DNA of 61,773 nucleotides, from contig CASDVD010000024.1 in assembly GCA_949284155.1 (NCBI GenBank), positions 1-61,773 on the forward strand. Reading direction: 5' to 3'. This document shows, in pieces, positions 55,149 to 61,512 of the stretch (within the stretch, counting starts at the first letter, position 1; each line of letters opens with the position of its first letter). Source of the DNA: an uncultured bacterium (lineage in GTDB: Bacteria > Cyanobacteriota > Vampirovibrionia > Gastranaerophilales > Gastranaerophilaceae). The notes beneath the pieces were generated by a model that worked only from the letters and a program-made list of their open reading frames with translations, was not told the origin of the DNA and did no database searches. A program made the position numbers and the translations under genes.

Positions 55149-56384
55149 TTAGTTTATCGGAAGCTGAACTATAAATGTACTGCCTTTTTGCGGCTCGCTT
55201 TCAAAAGATATTTTTCCGCCGTGGAGTTCTGTTAATTCTTTTGTAATAGTCAGCCCCAGTCCTGTTGAACTTTCATTTTTGCAGTAAATGTTGTTTAATT
55301 GGACAAACTTGTCAAATATTTTTTCGTGATGTTGTTGTTCAATGCCTATTCCGTTATCTTTAACAAATATTTTTACGATATTGTTGTTTTGAGTATATCC
55401 TGCTTCAATTTTACCTCCTGCCGGTGTAAATTTTATTGCATTGCTCAAGAGGTTAAACAGAATTTGCTGAACCTTTTGATAATCTGCCTTAATACCGGCA
55501 CCGGTTGCAGGAATGTTTTTAAGCAGGGTCAGATTTTTTTTATCCGCTAACGGTTGGACTATATTAATTACTTCTGTTATAGCAATGTTTAAATCAAAAA
55601 CAGAAGGCGTGAGTTTTAGTGCATGGGCTTCAATTTTTGAAATTTCCAGAATTTCATTAATCATACCGAGCAAATGCAGTCCGGAAACATGTATATCTCG
55701 TATATATTCGGACTGCTTTTCATTTACCGGCCCGAACAGCTGTTTTGAAAGCACTTCTGAAAATCCTATAATGGCATTCAACGGTGTACGCAGTTCATGA
55801 GAGGTATTTGCTAAGAATTCTGATTTTACTTTGTCTGCTTCTAATATTTTTTCATTTTGTTTTTTTATTGTTTCATTAGCTCTGGTTTTTTCAAGCAGAC
55901 TTTCTTGCAATGCTTTCAGCTGCAGTTTAAAGACATTCGACAGTTCACTGTCTTTCACTGCATAAGAGGCTATTGAACAGAATACATCAGTAATTTCTTT
56001 ATCCTCTTCATTAAATTCAGAATTCTTTTCTAAAAGTATAAACCCAAAAATGGTTCCGGCGATAATTAACTTAGATAAAAGATAATAGTTTTTATTATTT
56101 AAATTGAATGCCTTCGCAAGTATATCGTTGCCGTTAAATATTAAAGATTCTTCCGAATACAAAAGCGGTTTTATCTTTTCCGATACCTCAAAAGGTTTAT
56201 CAAAGGCGGCGTTTAATGTGTATTTAACAGCTGCATTATCAGAATTAACATAGCAGACAACTGCGGCGTCAAAGTTTACAACTGTCTGTAATAAGGCGAA
56301 TAAATTTTCATAGCAGCTTTCAGCATCTTCTGTATTTTTTAAAATAAGCGGGACTTTTTTTAATAAATTTTTAAACTTGTTCAT
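55149..56384 (-). CDS. Cytoplasmic GAF-like sensor histidine kinase
   Basis: H-box TSHELRTPLNAI, N-box LLSNAIKFT, G-boxes DNGIGI and GLGLTI. No TM segments. Contains no Trp codon. Confidence 0.88.
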   Translation of the reverse strand: MNKFKNLLKKVPLILKNTEDAESCYENLFALLQTVVNFDAAVVCYVNSDNAAVKYTLNAAFDKPFEVSEKIKPLLYSEESLIFNGNDILAKAFNLNNKNYYLLSKLIIAGTIFGFILLEKNSEFNEEDKEITDVFCSIASYAVKDSELSNVFKLQLKALQESLLEKTRANETIKKQNEKILEADKVKSEFLANTSHELRTPLNAIIGFSEVLSKQLFGPVNEKQSEYIRDIHVSGLHLLGMINEILEISKIEAHALKLTPSVFDLNIAITEVINIVQPLADKKNLTLLKNIPATGAGIKADYQKVQQILFNLLSNAIKFTPAGGKIEAGYTQNNNIVKIFVKDNGIGIEQQHHEKIFDKFVQLNNIYCKNESSTGLGLTITKELTELHGGKISFESEPQKGSTFIVQLPIN

Positions 56385-56425
56385 AAAGCGATTATAGGAT
56401 TCTTTTAGCTGAAAAACAAGTATAT

Positions 56426-57577
56426 TTAGCCCTGTTTGTTTTCTTTATCAAATCTGTATTTTGTAAAGATATTAGAAATTGCGGCTACAAAAAATCCCAT
56501 GAACCCTATGCTGAATAAGAAAGGAATACCATTTACCAGCACTTTTTGTTGTGCTAATTTTTTAAATTCATTTTTATTTGCAGCATTTTTAGCGATTGTC
56601 TCAAAAGATGGAATATCTAAATTTTCGCCTATTAATTCTTTACATCTGCCGGATTTTAAAAGCAATTTTTTGAAACCTTTTTCAAACAGCTCGCTTCCGG
56701 TAATTATATAAAATCCTGTTAACGGGAATCTGAAAAGAGTTTCCAGAAAATTCTGTTTCCCTCTGTCTTTTGCTGCTCCGAAATATCCGGCTCCTCCAAT
56801 TAATACGCATGAGGTAAGCTGTCCTTTGCTCAAAACCAGCTTTTCGTTTTGTGAATTAAAATCCAATGAAAAATATTTATTGAAAAAGTTGCGTTTTTTA
56901 GCATTGTTTTTAAATAGTTTTGTACCCGGTGCAAGAACAAATTCTGCAATATTTTGTAATAATTTTGACTTCTCTCCTCTTTTATAAATAAGAGCCGCAA
57001 GCCCTAAACAACACGAAAAAACGGCGGCTGCACGTTTTATATTTTTATGGGCGCTTTTTTCAACTTTTTTTTGTTTTTCTGTGTCTTCTTTTTTGGTTTC
57101 AAGGCTGGCAATGTTATTAAAATCAGCCTTTTTGAAAGTTTTTAAAGTGAAGAGATTTTTGAAATAATTTAATGTAAATTCGCAAAGAGGTATTATTGTG
57201 CCGCTTAGTGCAACTGCAGCTTTTGCACATAGTATTTTTTTGTTCAATGCTGTCGGATTTTTCATCAATGCCGTTGCGACTGTGCTGATTTGCCGCTGTG
57301 CATTTTTGTCCAGTTTTGATGAAAAAATTTTTCTTGATATATTTTCACCGATTAGTGCCGGCGCAAAATATACAAGAGCGCTTTCTGAAAGTTCGAGAAG
57401 GCTGTTTTCCGCTAAATCTTCTTTCGAACGTGCAAAAACTGCCTTGGGCAACAAGCAGGTGGATGTATCCTGAATAAATCTTGATGTGGAAAGACCGGAT
57501 GCCTGTTCTTGCGAATAAATGAACTTTGCGGCTGTTTTAAGGGGTTGTGATAACGTGTTTATTAATGTGACTTGCAT
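56426..57577 (-). CDS. Hypothetical multi-TM membrane protein, paralog family member C
   Basis: AAGGA RBS. N-terminal region similar to ORF 37246. YFGAAKDRGKQNFLETLF...FEKGFKKLLLKSG resembles RYAAARDKDERREILTRD...LKKAFAKLSQKSTG of ORF 38183. No Trp in 383 aa. Confidence 0.65.
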   Translation of the reverse strand: MQVTLINTLSQPLKTAAKFIYSQEQASGLSTSRFIQDTSTCLLPKAVFARSKEDLAENSLLELSESALVYFAPALIGENISRKIFSSKLDKNAQRQISTVATALMKNPTALNKKILCAKAAVALSGTIIPLCEFTLNYFKNLFTLKTFKKADFNNIASLETKKEDTEKQKKVEKSAHKNIKRAAAVFSCCLGLAALIYKRGEKSKLLQNIAEFVLAPGTKLFKNNAKKRNFFNKYFSLDFNSQNEKLVLSKGQLTSCVLIGGAGYFGAAKDRGKQNFLETLFRFPLTGFYIITGSELFEKGFKKLLLKSGRCKELIGENLDIPSFETIAKNAANKNEFKKLAQQKVLVNGIPFLFSIGFMGFFVAAISNIFTKYRFDKENKQG

Positions 57578-57607
57578 AAAATTTTCCTTTTAAATCTAAA
57601 AAATAAA

Positions 57608-57680
57608 AACCTGTACATACTCAGTACAGGTTTTTAAACAAAAATTTTATGCATTAAACACCTGTACTTATTACAGGCGC
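57608..57680 (-). promoter_or_regulatory. Putative ribosome-mediated Trp attenuator: 1:2 hairpin (57658-57680) and 3:4 intrinsic terminator (57608-57632 plus U-tract)
   Basis: Minus-strand RNA reads GCGCCUGUA-AUAAG-UACAGGUGU, then AACCUGUAC-UGAGUAU-GUACAGGUU followed by UUUAUUUUUU. Segment 2 (UACAGGU) can alternatively pair with segment 3 (ACCUGUA). Confidence 0.6.
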
Positions 57681-57718
57681 CACCAATTTTTATTTAAATT
57701 TAAAATACTATTTTTCAT
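57671..57718 (-). CDS. Leader peptide MKNSILNLNKNWWRL with tandem Trp codons
   Basis: Read codon by codon on the minus strand: ATG AAA AAT AGT ATT TTA AAT TTA AAT AAA AAT TGG TGG CGC CTG TAA. Its last codons form the 5' arm of hairpin 1:2. No SD; the ATG lies about 7 nt after the predicted -10. Confidence 0.55.
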   Translation of the reverse strand: MKNSILNLNKNWWRL

Positions 57719-57725
57719 AAATTTG

Positions 57726-57754
57726 ATTCTATATTCAACATAAAAAAACGTCAA
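57726..57754 (-). promoter_or_regulatory. Sigma-70-like promoter for the leader transcript (TTGACG-N17-TAGAAT)
   Basis: On the minus strand: -35 TTGACG (57749-57754), a 17-nt spacer, and -10 TAGAAT (57726-57731). Confidence 0.5.
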
Positions 57755-58668: not shown

Positions 58669-58692
58669 ATAACCTGATATCTGCGGCATAAA
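58669..58692 (+). repeat. Left copy of a direct repeat flanking the recombinase gene (ATAACCtgATATCTGCGgcaTAAA)
   Basis: Shares ATAACC, ATATCTGCG and TAAA blocks, in the same order and orientation, with 59309-59328. Also part of the local inverted repeat TATAACC...GGTTATA. Confidence 0.55.
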
Positions 58693-58721
58693 TGTTGGTT
58701 ATACCTATAGGAGTTATTAAG

Positions 58722-59261
58722 ATGAATATTGTAGAGCCAATCAGAAAAAAACAGGATATTGCTAAAGTAGAAAATATATTGCGTCAAAATAAAAGAGACT
58801 TGCTTTTCTTTGTTATGGGAATCAACAGCGGGCTGCGTATATCTGATATACTCGCTCTGGATGTGAAAGATGTGCATAATGTATCGCATATTGAGGTTGT
58901 TGAAAAAAAGACAGACAAACGTAAGAAATTTTTTGTGAATTCAAAACTAAGGCCGATGATTGCAGAATTTATCAAAGGCAGGAAGGATGATGAACCGCTA
59001 TTTTTATCCCGTTTCGGCAATCGGCTGAATCGGATACGGGCATATGAGATTGTTAATTTTGCATGTAAAAAATCCGGAATAAAATATAAAGTCGGCACTC
59101 ACACATTGCGTAAAACATTCGGGTATCATCATTACCGGCAGTTTAAAGATGTGGCATTGCTCCAGAGAATTTTCAACCATTCAAGTCCTTGTGTAACAAT
59201 GAGGTATATTGGCATAGAACAAGATAACATAGATGCAAGCTACAAAAAATTTATTCTTTGA
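58722..59261 (+). CDS. Minimal tyrosine recombinase (catalytic domain only, about 180 aa)
   Basis: Catalytic residues are recognisable: NSGLRISD (Arg I), GTHTLRKTFG (HxxR), NHSSPCVTMRYI (His/Tyr). Start at the ATG at 58722 after an AGGAG RBS. No N-terminal core-binding domain. Confidence 0.82.
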   Translation: MNIVEPIRKKQDIAKVENILRQNKRDLLFFVMGINSGLRISDILALDVKDVHNVSHIEVVEKKTDKRKKFFVNSKLRPMIAEFIKGRKDDEPLFLSRFGNRLNRIRAYEIVNFACKKSGIKYKVGTHTLRKTFGYHHYRQFKDVALLQRIFNHSSPCVTMRYIGIEQDNIDASYKKFIL

Positions 59262-59308
59262 GCAAGGTGCAGTAAATTAAAAAATGACCTGAAAACTCAG
59301 AAAAAATG

Positions 59309-59328
59309 ATAACCAATATCTGCGTAAA
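59309..59328 (+). repeat. Right copy of the direct repeat flanking the recombinase gene (ATAACCaATATCTGCGTAAA)
   Basis: See the left copy. Located between the recombinase stop and its terminator. Confidence 0.55.
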
Positions 59329-59377
59329 CAGACACTTCAGGTATGCTCAACCGAATTTTTATTGTATATAGAACAAA

Positions 59378-59400
59378 AAGACGTTTCATAAACGTCTTTT
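59378..59400 (+). terminator. Rho-independent terminator after the recombinase
   Basis: AAGACGTTT-CAT-AAACGTCTT followed by TT(G). Confidence 0.5.
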
Positions 59401-59691
59401 GAAAAATGGGGCGGCAAATTGGAACATGCTGCAACCTTTAGCTGTTTTTATCGCAAAAGAATTTAAGAACATACCGATAGAGGAAATACGTTGTTTTCTT
59501 GCAGAGTCTTAAACTTGTCGGATTATAAGAAGTTCAATGCGCCTAATTATTGTATTTATTTTTTATGATAATAATTAAAAAAATATTAATTTTTATCGTT
59601 ATTTGAATTTAATACGTTACCATAAAAATAGATTGCTTAGTTAAACTAGACTATTAATTTTAGCATCTGAATAAAATGTGGAAGGAGTAAA

Positions 59692-61512
59692 ATGAAAGAT
59701 TTTTTCAAAGTTGTTAAACCCAATATAGCAAATAATGATAACCTTAGAGACCCTCAAAAATATGGATATGAAGCAATTGAACAATCTACTGAAGAAAAAG
59801 AAATTGGAATTGTTTTACCTGTAGGCTGTGGGAAATCAGGATTAATTGCATTAACTCCATTTGCATACAAAGCCAACAGAGTTTTAATCATTGCCCCATT
59901 TGTAAAATTAGCTGAACAACTACATGATGATTTTGACCCTACGACAGGAGAAATATTCTATCATAAAAGGCAGGTAGTCTGTGATGATTCTTTTGCAGAA
60001 CCAGTACTTATCCGTGGAACAAGCGTAAATATGGCTGATTTAGATGAAGCTGATGTTGTCGTTGCAAATATACAACAATTACAAGGTGGAAACAATAGAT
60101 GGTTAACAACGTTACCAACCGACTATTTCGATTTAATATTGTTTGATGAAGCTCATCACAATGTAGCCGAAAGTTGGGAAATCTTGCGGAAAAAATTTCC
60201 CGAAGCAAAAATTGTTAATTACAGTGCAACACCTTGTCGCGCTGACGGAAAAATTATGTCTGGTAAGATAATTTATTCCTATTCTATATTTGATGCAATA
60301 CAAAAAGGTTATGTCAAAGAATTAAAAGCCTTAATGTTAAATCCTGCAACTCTAAAATATGTCCGAATTGATGATGAAACACAGACAGAAATTGAAGTTT
60401 CAAGAGAGGAAGTTCTCAAATTAGGAGAAGAAGATGCAGATTTTAGACGTAGTATAGTTACATCAAAAGAAACATTAAATACTATTGTTGATGCCTCTAT
60501 CAGAGAATTAAACCGAATTAGAGAAATTACAAAAGACAACAAACATAAAATAATTGCATCTGCCTTAAATTACCGCCATTGCCATCAAATTGTAGCAGCT
60601 TACGAAGCAAGGGGAATGAGGGTAGATTATGTTCATAGTAAAAGACTGGAAAAGGATGCAAATAAAATTGTTCTTGAAAAATTAGAAAAACATGAATTAG
60701 ATGTAATTGTACAAGTTAGAAAACTGGGAGAAGGTTTTGACCATCCGTACTTATCTGTAGCAGCTATATTTAGTATTTTTAGCAACCTGTCACCATTTGT
60801 CCAGTTTGTTGGTAGAATAATGAGGGTTGTTGACCAAAATAATCCAAGCAGTTTGAACAACAAGGGAACTGTTATCTTTCATGCAGGAAGTAATATCGCA
60901 AGCAAGTGGTCCGATTTTCAACATTTTAGTGGTGCCGATAAAGATTACTTCGAACAACTTCTTCCTCTTGTAGAAGAAACAGATTTTATAAGTAATTCAG
61001 GTACATCTGATGCTGAAATTATTCCAAAGCAAAGAAGTCGATATAAACGAGAATTAGAAATCAAAACACAAGCGGGTGTTACAATCGATGAAATTCCATT
61101 AATTTTAGACAAAAACTTAATGCAATTAATTCAAATAGGTGTATCTGATGAAAAAATTATGGAAAGGTTACAAGAATTAAGAAATACTGTTATAGAACAC
61201 AAACCTCTCTTAACTACAAAAGTTAAAAAAAGACAAGCTGACAGAAAGTCTTTAGATAAGACCGTAAAAGTTATAGCCGCAGAAATGTTAGAAGTTCATG
61301 GAGAAAACCCTGGTCATAAAAATCTTTCGAAGTCTCCATCTGTTACAAATTTTATATTTATCAAAAAGTTACTAGACGAAAAAATTGCTAAATTTTTAGG
61401 TCGAAAATTAGGAGAACGATTTGAGTATAGTCAAAAAGAATTAGATGCAATATTTGATAATTTGGACAATATAGCAGCTGATATAGAAAAAGAGGTGTTT
61501 CCAAATGGCTAA
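59692..61512 (+). CDS. Superfamily 2 DEAH-box helicase (type III restriction Res / SSL2-like core) with an uncharacterised 170-aa C-terminal extension
   Basis: Motif I LPVGCGKSG, II FDEAHH, III YSATPCRADG, V/VI KLGEGFDHPYL and QFVGRIMR. GGAG RBS. Pro codons are almost all CCA/CCT, whereas CCG-rich usage is seen in core genes such as pyrG. Confidence 0.85.
   Translation: MKDFFKVVKPNIANNDNLRDPQKYGYEAIEQSTEEKEIGIVLPVGCGKSGLIALTPFAYKANRVLIIAPFVKLAEQLHDDFDPTTGEIFYHKRQVVCDDSFAEPVLIRGTSVNMADLDEADVVVANIQQLQGGNNRWLTTLPTDYFDLILFDEAHHNVAESWEILRKKFPEAKIVNYSATPCRADGKIMSGKIIYSYSIFDAIQKGYVKELKALMLNPATLKYVRIDDETQTEIEVSREEVLKLGEEDADFRRSIVTSKETLNTIVDASIRELNRIREITKDNKHKIIASALNYRHCHQIVAAYEARGMRVDYVHSKRLEKDANKIVLEKLEKHELDVIVQVRKLGEGFDHPYLSVAAIFSIFSNLSPFVQFVGRIMRVVDQNNPSSLNNKGTVIFHAGSNIASKWSDFQHFSGADKDYFEQLLPLVEETDFISNSGTSDAEIIPKQRSRYKRELEIKTQAGVTIDEIPLILDKNLMQLIQIGVSDEKIMERLQELRNTVIEHKPLLTTKVKKRQADRKSLDKTVKVIAAEMLEVHGENPGHKNLSKSPSVTNFIFIKKLLDEKIAKFLGRKLGERFEYSQKELDAIFDNLDNIAADIEKEVFPNG

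Follow-up and report, generated by a model that had tools for sequence, protein, structure and literature searches.

A predicted tryptophan leader-peptide attenuator conserved ahead of a Trp-free orphan protein in uncultured gut relatives of the Cyanobacteria

Leader-peptide attenuation is a textbook mechanism of gene control, described mainly for the amino-acid biosynthesis operons of the Proteobacteria and Actinobacteria. In Escherichia coli, trpL is a leader of the 14-codon class with the tandem tryptophan codons UGG UGG followed by CGC, a stop codon in or beside segment 1, four RNA segments and an intrinsic terminator. The choice made by the E. coli trp switch is kinetic, the terminator being the more stable fold overall. 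Two other kinds of regulatory leader bear comparison with the locus described here. TnaC, which carries a conserved W-x3-D-x7-P motif, responds to free Trp by way of its nascent chain; the ribosome halts on the TnaC stop codon, and Rho is blocked. The mgtL and mgtP leaders of Salmonella use Pro codons and alternative stem-loops to control non-biosynthetic membrane proteins, and sense Mg2+ and ATP.

Comparative genomics has also uncovered His leaders ahead of the hisS and hisZ paralogues of Bacilli; the 2010 survey that reported them knew of no leader-peptide attenuation outside the Proteobacteria and Actinobacteria before these cases (PMC2965389). In mycobacteria, leaderless short ORFs with polycysteine runs are reported to act as amino-acid-responsive attenuators of downstream genes (bioRxiv 10.1101/834739). 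In the literature we found no prior description of leader-peptide attenuation in Melainabacteria, nor of a leader peptide built on methionine codons.

Here we present a comparative analysis of a candidate attenuator in an uncultured member of the Gastranaerophilaceae. The window, i.e. the whole stretch of DNA that was analysed, consists of positions 1 to 61,773 of contig CASDVD010000024.1 (assembly GCA_949284155.1), has a G+C content of ~35% and carries ordinary chromosomal genes, among them those for an FeFe hydrogenase, FtsH, Pol I and CTP synthase. A sequence-only reading had pointed to a promoter, a Trp-containing mini-ORF, two hairpins and an AAGGA ribosome-binding site on the minus strand, and all of these are present as first described, at 57754-57575. 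The -35 hexamer TTGACG (57749..57754) and the -10 hexamer TAGAAT (57726..57731) are separated by a 17-nt spacer and precede a leader ORF of 15 codons plus stop, MKNSILNLNKNWWRL (57671..57718, with its ATG at 57718-57716). The -10 hexamer lies only 7 nt before the AUG, so the mRNA of the mini-ORF is predicted to be leaderless, a point that we add to the promoter assignment, and we infer a transcription start at about 57718-57719. The tandem Trp codons, TGG TGG, are codons 12 and 13 (57685-57680), and the stop codon TAA (57673-57671) marks the end of segment 1.

The Arg, Leu and stop codons of the leader ORF make up segment 1 (GCGCCUGUA, 57673..57681), which pairs with segment 2 (UACAGGUGU, 57657..57665) in the expected 9-bp hairpin (57681-57673 with 57665-57657). 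Segment 3 (UAAAAACCUGUAC, 57624..57636) can serve either as the partner of segment 2 or as the 5' arm of a terminator, the 3' arm of which is segment 4 (GUACAGGUUUUUA, 57604..57616), directly followed by the U-tract UUUUUU (57598..57603). The strong stem-loop noticed earlier corresponds, with this U-tract, to an intrinsic terminator with a 13-bp stem (57636-57604, -15.9 kcal/mol) that spans 57636-57598, between the leader ORF and a 383-aa gene. This gene, X383 (56426..57577, minus strand, ATG at 57577), is preceded by the Shine-Dalgarno sequence AAGGA (57585..57589), and its product is Trp-free, lysine-rich and helical.

The arrangement resembles E. coli trpL in its length of 14-15 codons, in the UGG UGG CGC near its end, which is the Trp-Trp-Arg match that first drew attention to it, in the 1:2, 2:3 and 3:4 pairings, and in the use of an intrinsic terminator. 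It differs in having a mini-ORF predicted to be leaderless, in a cargo that is an uncharacterised Trp-free protein rather than trpEDCBA, and in its host, a non-photosynthetic relative of the Cyanobacteria. As in tnaC-tnaAB, a short Trp-linked leader peptide would control a gene outside Trp biosynthesis; unlike tnaC, the leader has tandem Trp codons, an intrinsic terminator and a predicted opposite logic, being on at low Trp. Regulatory leader codons are likewise shared with Salmonella mgtL and mgtP, but the mgt cargo is not depleted in the sensed amino acid. The Bacilli His leaders are similar in being attenuators outside the Proteobacteria and ahead of paralogues, but they read His codons and their cargo has a known link to that amino acid (PMC2965389). 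A leaderless short ORF with single-codon runs is also the feature shared with the mycobacterial polycysteine system, which differs in reading Cys rather than Trp or Met, in belonging to Actinobacteria, and in its expression platform and cargo (10.1101/834739).

When the whole window was searched with the Rfam covariance models, there was no match at the gathering thresholds, and permissive settings returned sub-threshold noise only. Neither a T-box nor any other known riboswitch came near any Rfam threshold. Against the Trp_leader family, RF00513, the leader scores 19.8 bits, where the threshold is 41, and it is not a member of that family.

The 145-nt leader folds far more stably than expected (z = -5.35 against dinucleotide shuffles, with 0 of 200 shuffles as good). 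Taken separately, hairpin 1:2 has an energy of -12.5 kcal/mol and terminator 3:4 one of -15.9 kcal/mol, to be compared with -13.7 kcal/mol for the 2:3 antiterminator alone. For the leader at full length, the lowest free energy belongs to the terminator fold, in most loci even with segment 1 masked, so the choice between the folds must be kinetic, as in E. coli; at one locus (L011; loci are referred to by L numbers) masking segment 1 flips the full-length minimum-energy fold to 2:3. Because the full-length masked folds failed to flip to the antiterminator in most loci, truncated transcripts were folded as well. When the transcript ends short of segment 4 and its first 15 nt are masked, the 2:3 pairing reaches -16.4 kcal/mol, which bears out the proposed ability of segment 2 to pair with segment 3. 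The stalled-ribosome geometry put forward in the sequence-only reading also held up in these folds: -16.4 kcal/mol with the ribosome stalled at the Trp codons compares with just -1.8 kcal/mol of structure left for segment 2 when the ribosome is modelled on the stop codon, the footprint size being an assumption taken from the literature.

The heptamer pair CCTGTAC/GTACAGG occurs 10 times in the window against 1.9 expected, with three copies in the leader and seven scattered in coding sequence without a hairpin. A REP-like repeated palindrome was considered and rejected, since the window has a single copy of the full hairpin and each of the remaining CCTGTAC copies stands by itself within coding sequence.

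To place the leader in a wider context, orthologous loci were collected, giving a set of 80 loci at 55-80% identity, all of them from Gastranaerophilales (Melainabacteria) MAGs or mislabelled gut MAGs. In each of the 79 loci with upstream DNA, a Trp-Trp mini-ORF and the first and second hairpins stand ahead of the X383 orthologue, and at least 42 of the 79 have, by a sequence criterion, a U-tract behind segment 4. This conservation excludes a chance arrangement. Classes of expression platform derived from minimum-free-energy folds proved unreliable, since the U-tract was absorbed into a stem, and were replaced by the sequence criterion. The motif TGGTGGYRCCTGT is found once per locus and invariably upstream of X383 (80 matches in 1.14 Mb). 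When both strands of these related loci, 1.14 Mb in all, were scanned generically for short ORFs of the WW or poly-Met type with a terminator behind them, 119 sites came up, 118 of which lie directly upstream of X383-family genes.

The in-frame TGG TGG is invariant in all 72 distinct leaders, those with entirely different stems included, and is followed by CGC, TGC or CAC. Conservation of the peptide goes beyond the two Trp residues, with an LNLN-like stretch before them and Arg, Cys or His after. The Leu at position -4 is coded by TTG, TTA, CTT and CTC across distinct leaders, which indicates selection on the peptide reading frame, and Asn is retained at -3, -5 and -8. Conservation of this extent is more than a pure codon sensor would need, and we count it against the attenuator reading. 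One or other of two initiation signals marks the start of the mini-ORF: 49 of the 79 loci have the leaderless arrangement (TTGACx-N17, or N16 in a few, then TAnnnT, with 6-7 nt between the -10 hexamer and the AUG), and in 22 an AAGGA-type Shine-Dalgarno sequence precedes the mini-ORF instead. At locus L052 the mini-ORF starts with TTG and is preceded by a Shine-Dalgarno site. Beyond the orthologue set, an environmental homologue of ~26% identity (L167, 2330-2465) has a leaderless MKNVSYQITWWRLP leader followed by a hairpin and a terminator, so the WW leader is old.

The patterns of substitution in the stems are informative about both folds. Segments 1 to 3 scarcely vary among the 50 nearest leaders and segment 4 drifts, as would be expected if both segment 2 and segment 3 had to pair with two partners and segment 1 had to encode the peptide besides. 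More distant clades have different stems, and there the pairings covary. In the 19 leaders of clade C, 90.7% of the cells of hairpin 1:2 and the terminator are paired, six pairs are changed on both sides, and the covariation score was reached by none of 500 shuffles. For the antiterminator 2:3 in the same leaders, 94.4% of cells are paired, against 25-41% with the partner slid; 12 cells show compensatory changes, and again 0 of 500 shuffles reached the score. Individual cases are easily followed: in L050 an A-to-G change in segment 2 is matched by a U-to-C change in segment 3, so that UGCAGG pairs with CCUGCA, and in L078 AGACAGGUC pairs with GACCUGUCU. The comparison of leaders thus gives covariation support to both the terminator fold and the 2:3 antiterminator fold.

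The expression platform itself varies between clades. In ~20 loci, clade B, the second hairpin is weaker, has no U-tract and abuts the Shine-Dalgarno sequence, and these leaders appear to occlude that sequence instead of terminating transcription. About nine clade D leaders have a longer expression platform. We take the leaders of clades B and D to be probable variants of this switch, translational or composite in type. The clade C ORF passes through hairpin 1:2 and stops 14 nt past segment 2, with a third Trp codon at its end, and the footprint logic is less clean there.

Further details of these clades were observed. The clade C leader ORF, e.g. at L056 (3807-3960), has 24 codons and ends in ...LLSW(Q/R)-stop; its stop-codon region, AAGCUGAUAAUAA, is complementary to UUGUCAGAUUAU, located between the terminator and the Shine-Dalgarno sequence, and this pairing may constitute a second control layer. 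In clade D (L046, L054, L055, L057, L058, L061, L062, L064 and L068) the leaders are 190-250 nt long, and a conserved long-range helix, CUUGU...ACAAGUUUUAGGA, adjoins the Shine-Dalgarno sequence in a platform unlike a simple terminator.

Taken together, the in-frame single-codon runs, the start signals, the covarying hairpins and the avoidance of the same amino acid by the cargo lead to ribosome-mediated attenuation. We put at roughly 80% the probability that the element is a transcription attenuator of the ribosome-mediated, leader-peptide kind, responding to how much charged tRNA-Trp is available. Comparative evidence strongly supports the core proposal, in which the Trp leader-peptide attenuator is complete and has the alternative pairings 1:2, 2:3 and 3:4. 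In the predicted pathway, transcription would begin at or beside the AUG of the 15-codon leaderless mini-ORF. With Trp-tRNA plentiful, the ribosome would proceed to the stop codon, covering segment 1 and about half of segment 2; terminator 3:4 with its U-tract would then form, and transcription would end near 57600. With Trp-tRNA scarce, the ribosome would stall at codon 12 or 13 (UGG UGG) and cover segment 1 only; the emerging segment 2 would pair with segment 3, the terminator would be blocked, and RNA polymerase would enter the 383-aa gene. X383 would be the only conserved cargo of the switch and, being Trp-free, could be made when Trp is limiting. The direction of regulation, on at low Trp, is one that we infer from the footprint geometry. 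In published reconstructions of gut Melainabacteria, Trp and Met are not listed among the missing biosynthetic pathways (PMC3787301), which we count against the attenuator reading, together with the greater stability of the terminator fold over the whole leader, the clade C geometry, the leaders that have no U-tract and the Trp residues of L167.

The conservation of the peptide raises the alternative that the leader is a ligand-dependent arrest peptide of the TnaC type, in which the nascent ...LNxNWWR would, together with free Trp or another small molecule, jam the ribosome, so that the switch would report on a metabolite. The preservation of Leu -4 through synonymous codons and of Asn -3, -5 and -8 besides the two Trp codons, as well as the survival of the WWR core in L167 at ~26% identity, would fit such a mechanism. 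However, just 12-13 residues would have been made at the stall, too short a chain for the exit tunnel; the leader does not have the TnaC-like W-x3-D-x7-P motif, or indeed any Asp or Pro; and the terminator is intrinsic rather than Rho-dependent. The Met-codon runs in paralogues, combined with avoidance of the same amino acid by the cargo, fit starvation sensing instead, and we judge an arrest peptide unlikely. Those same paralogues bear on another possibility, a general sensor of translation stress resembling ermC or toiL, for which Trp and Met codons would simply be slow-decoding sites and any slowdown of the ribosome, such as that caused by antibiotics, would be inducing. A non-biosynthetic cargo and codons that differ between paralogues are compatible with this idea, but the removal of Trp from the proteins behind WW leaders and of Met from those behind poly-Met leaders argues for amino-acid specificity, and both paralogues seem to share one genome, which would be redundant for a general sensor. 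We judge stress sensing, too, to be unlikely.

It could also be supposed that the mini-ORF is incidental and that the terminator is governed by RNA alone or by a bound protein, as in a riboswitch or a TRAP- or PyrR-like system, with the almost invariant segments 1-3 of the 50 nearest leaders as a possible binding site. Invariance of these segments with a freer segment 4 is, however, also what the double pairing constraints predict. Moreover, the in-frame TGG TGG stays fixed while the stems change, the start signals of the ORF are conserved in two different forms, an analogous poly-Met ORF is present in the sister subfamily, and no Rfam family was found at threshold. We consider this the least likely of the alternatives, with very little probability attached to it.

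The composition of the cargo is in line with the attenuator reading. X383 of the window and all 80 orthologues have a Trp count of zero, and 119 of 120 database homologues are Trp-free, against a background of 0.5-0.6%; more distant members of the family have 0.4-2.6% Trp. Three columns at which the sister subfamily has Trp (35/35, 24/35 and 33/35 sequences) are occupied in the WW-leader subfamily by Leu, Leu and Phe, in 81, 77 and 86 of 89 proteins respectively. Because conserved Trp columns have been replaced, X383 looks to have been purged of the amino acid that its leader would sense, and without tryptophan it is still makeable during Trp limitation. The rule is not universal: L167, which has a WW leader, has four Trp residues. 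The homologues L081 and L169, which have no leader at all, contain 5 and 11. The earlier suggestion of a Trp-starvation response module is made more plausible by the Trp-free X383; the inclusion of the kinase and trpS is not supported, these neighbours being unconserved. The absence of Trp from the kinase (411 aa) had been considered as a signal and was set aside, as it is insignificant alone with ~2 expected.

X383 has no match in Pfam, NCBIfam or PDB sequence searches, in agreement with the view that trp biosynthesis is not what the cargo encodes. Its close homologues, which number more than 1,200, are likewise without a Pfam domain. Among 1.84 billion representatives, only 217 clusters at 50% identity match it, and the cluster names are uniformly "hypothetical protein". 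The label "multi-TM" given to it earlier fits weakly: there are about three hydrophobic segments, the strongest C-terminal, and a net charge of +28. An AlphaFold model from a 101-sequence alignment (pLDDT 92, pTM 0.88) is all-helical with one beta hairpin; an earlier model from 12 sequences was poor (pLDDT 59). Foldseek comparison of the model with the PDB and viral structures gave a best E of 0.18 and TM values of at most 0.26, so that the modelled fold is without a known counterpart, and as far as the sequence matches extend, the family is restricted to Melainabacteria. A role in amino-acid-specific scavenging or in a starvation function at the membrane is a low-confidence guess.

The gene downstream (55149-56384, minus strand) encodes a kinase with HisKA and HATPase_c domains and a weak GAF match, and had been taken as part of a membrane-protein/sensor-kinase operon. 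Among the 80 loci, a kinase gene stands beside X383 only in L052, where it is upstream of the gene, and ogt only in L001, the closest relative; trpS is not a conserved neighbour in these loci either. In the 41-nt gap after X383 there is a promoter-like site, TTGTTT-N17-TATAAT-N6-ATG (56385-56412, minus strand), with the leaderless-type spacing seen at the leader ORFs, and for this reason the kinase probably has its own promoter. The operon thus did not survive comparison, and the regulated unit would be the 383-aa gene alone; the convergent trpS looks coincidental. No trp biosynthesis genes were found among the 28 window ORFs searched with Pfam, a scan that omitted 17 of the 44 ORFs of at least 180 aa, all at 14668-39172. 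Just beyond ogt, the plus strand at 58692-61512 encodes a short tyrosine recombinase of 189 aa (Phage_integrase) and a 606-aa ResIII/helicase protein; this could be the border of a mobile or defence island.

A sister subfamily provides a parallel to the WW group. In ~45 loci, homologues of ~40-55% identity are preceded by poly-Met leader peptides with a Shine-Dalgarno sequence and a strong terminator. These leaders have 6-9 Met codons (L091-L163; e.g. L109 at ~2330-2500 and L085 at 2329-2500), as exemplified by MKNNTMMMQMMMMQSLNSGGHCYANRMC. The AUG run, acting as segment 1, can pair with a downstream CAUUGU stretch, and the GGCGGUC, GGUGGU or GGCAGU that comes next shows complementarity to the terminator's 5' arm. 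This 2:3 complementarity to the locus's own terminator has a median of -11.9 kcal/mol, against -8.4 kcal/mol for cross-locus controls (p = 3e-11). The proteins behind poly-Met leaders are Met-poor, with a median of 0.46% internal Met against a background of 2.1%, and have retained Trp, the opposite of what is seen in the WW group (Mann-Whitney p = 1.7e-6 and 1.1e-8, uncorrected for phylogeny). In two assemblies, poly-Met and WW copies lie on different contigs with coverage of 270/266 and 263/262, and the near-equal coverage is suggestive, but not proof, of both paralogues being in one genome. The poly-Met leaders look like a methionine-codon attenuator, and the sister subfamily together with the WW group suggests a modular family of sensors and effectors in Trp and Met versions. 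Single-codon runs that differ between paralogues are the expected look of tRNA-charging sensors.

On the computational evidence assembled here, we regard the leader as a real and deeply conserved regulatory element. Its kind of mechanism is known; the lineage is new and the cargo unusual. The same attenuator logic would be kept throughout an order of uncultured gut bacteria related to the Cyanobacteria, and the switch would mark X383 as a tryptophan-limitation gene, with which its Trp-free sequence agrees. For an uncultured host, this offers a concrete inducing condition under which to study a highly conserved orphan protein, as well as a compact Trp- or Met-responsive RNA part. More tentatively, and at odds that we put a little below even, the X383 proteins may be new amino-acid-specific starvation effectors, with paralogues wired to Trp-Trp, poly-Met and possibly Ile-rich leaders and each purged of the amino acid concerned. 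If so, ribosome-mediated attenuation that reads methionine codons would have its first example in the poly-Met version, the X383 fold would be new, and its function, be it uptake, salvage or a membrane response, would be directly testable, the inducing signal being known.

Several other arrangements were noted among the homologues. L132 (~2300-2485) is a single case of an Ile/Leu-rich leader, MFETLNIVIISLIIISLLDSKRLLYCECRI, with a terminator; Ile depletion is absent in the L132 protein, which has 6.9% Ile. At L143 (~2400-2470) and L145 (~1550-1620), tandem palindromes, GTTACTATATACAGTAAC and GTTACTATGTATAGTAAC, lie over a TTGACA promoter with no leader ORF, and look like a repressor operator. 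Finally, in L085-L090 the poly-Met-leader gene is flanked by divergent genes for a LexA-like Peptidase_S24 protein and a Y-family polymerase, with a zinc alcohol dehydrogenase gene 15 nt after it, an arrangement conserved only within that cluster.
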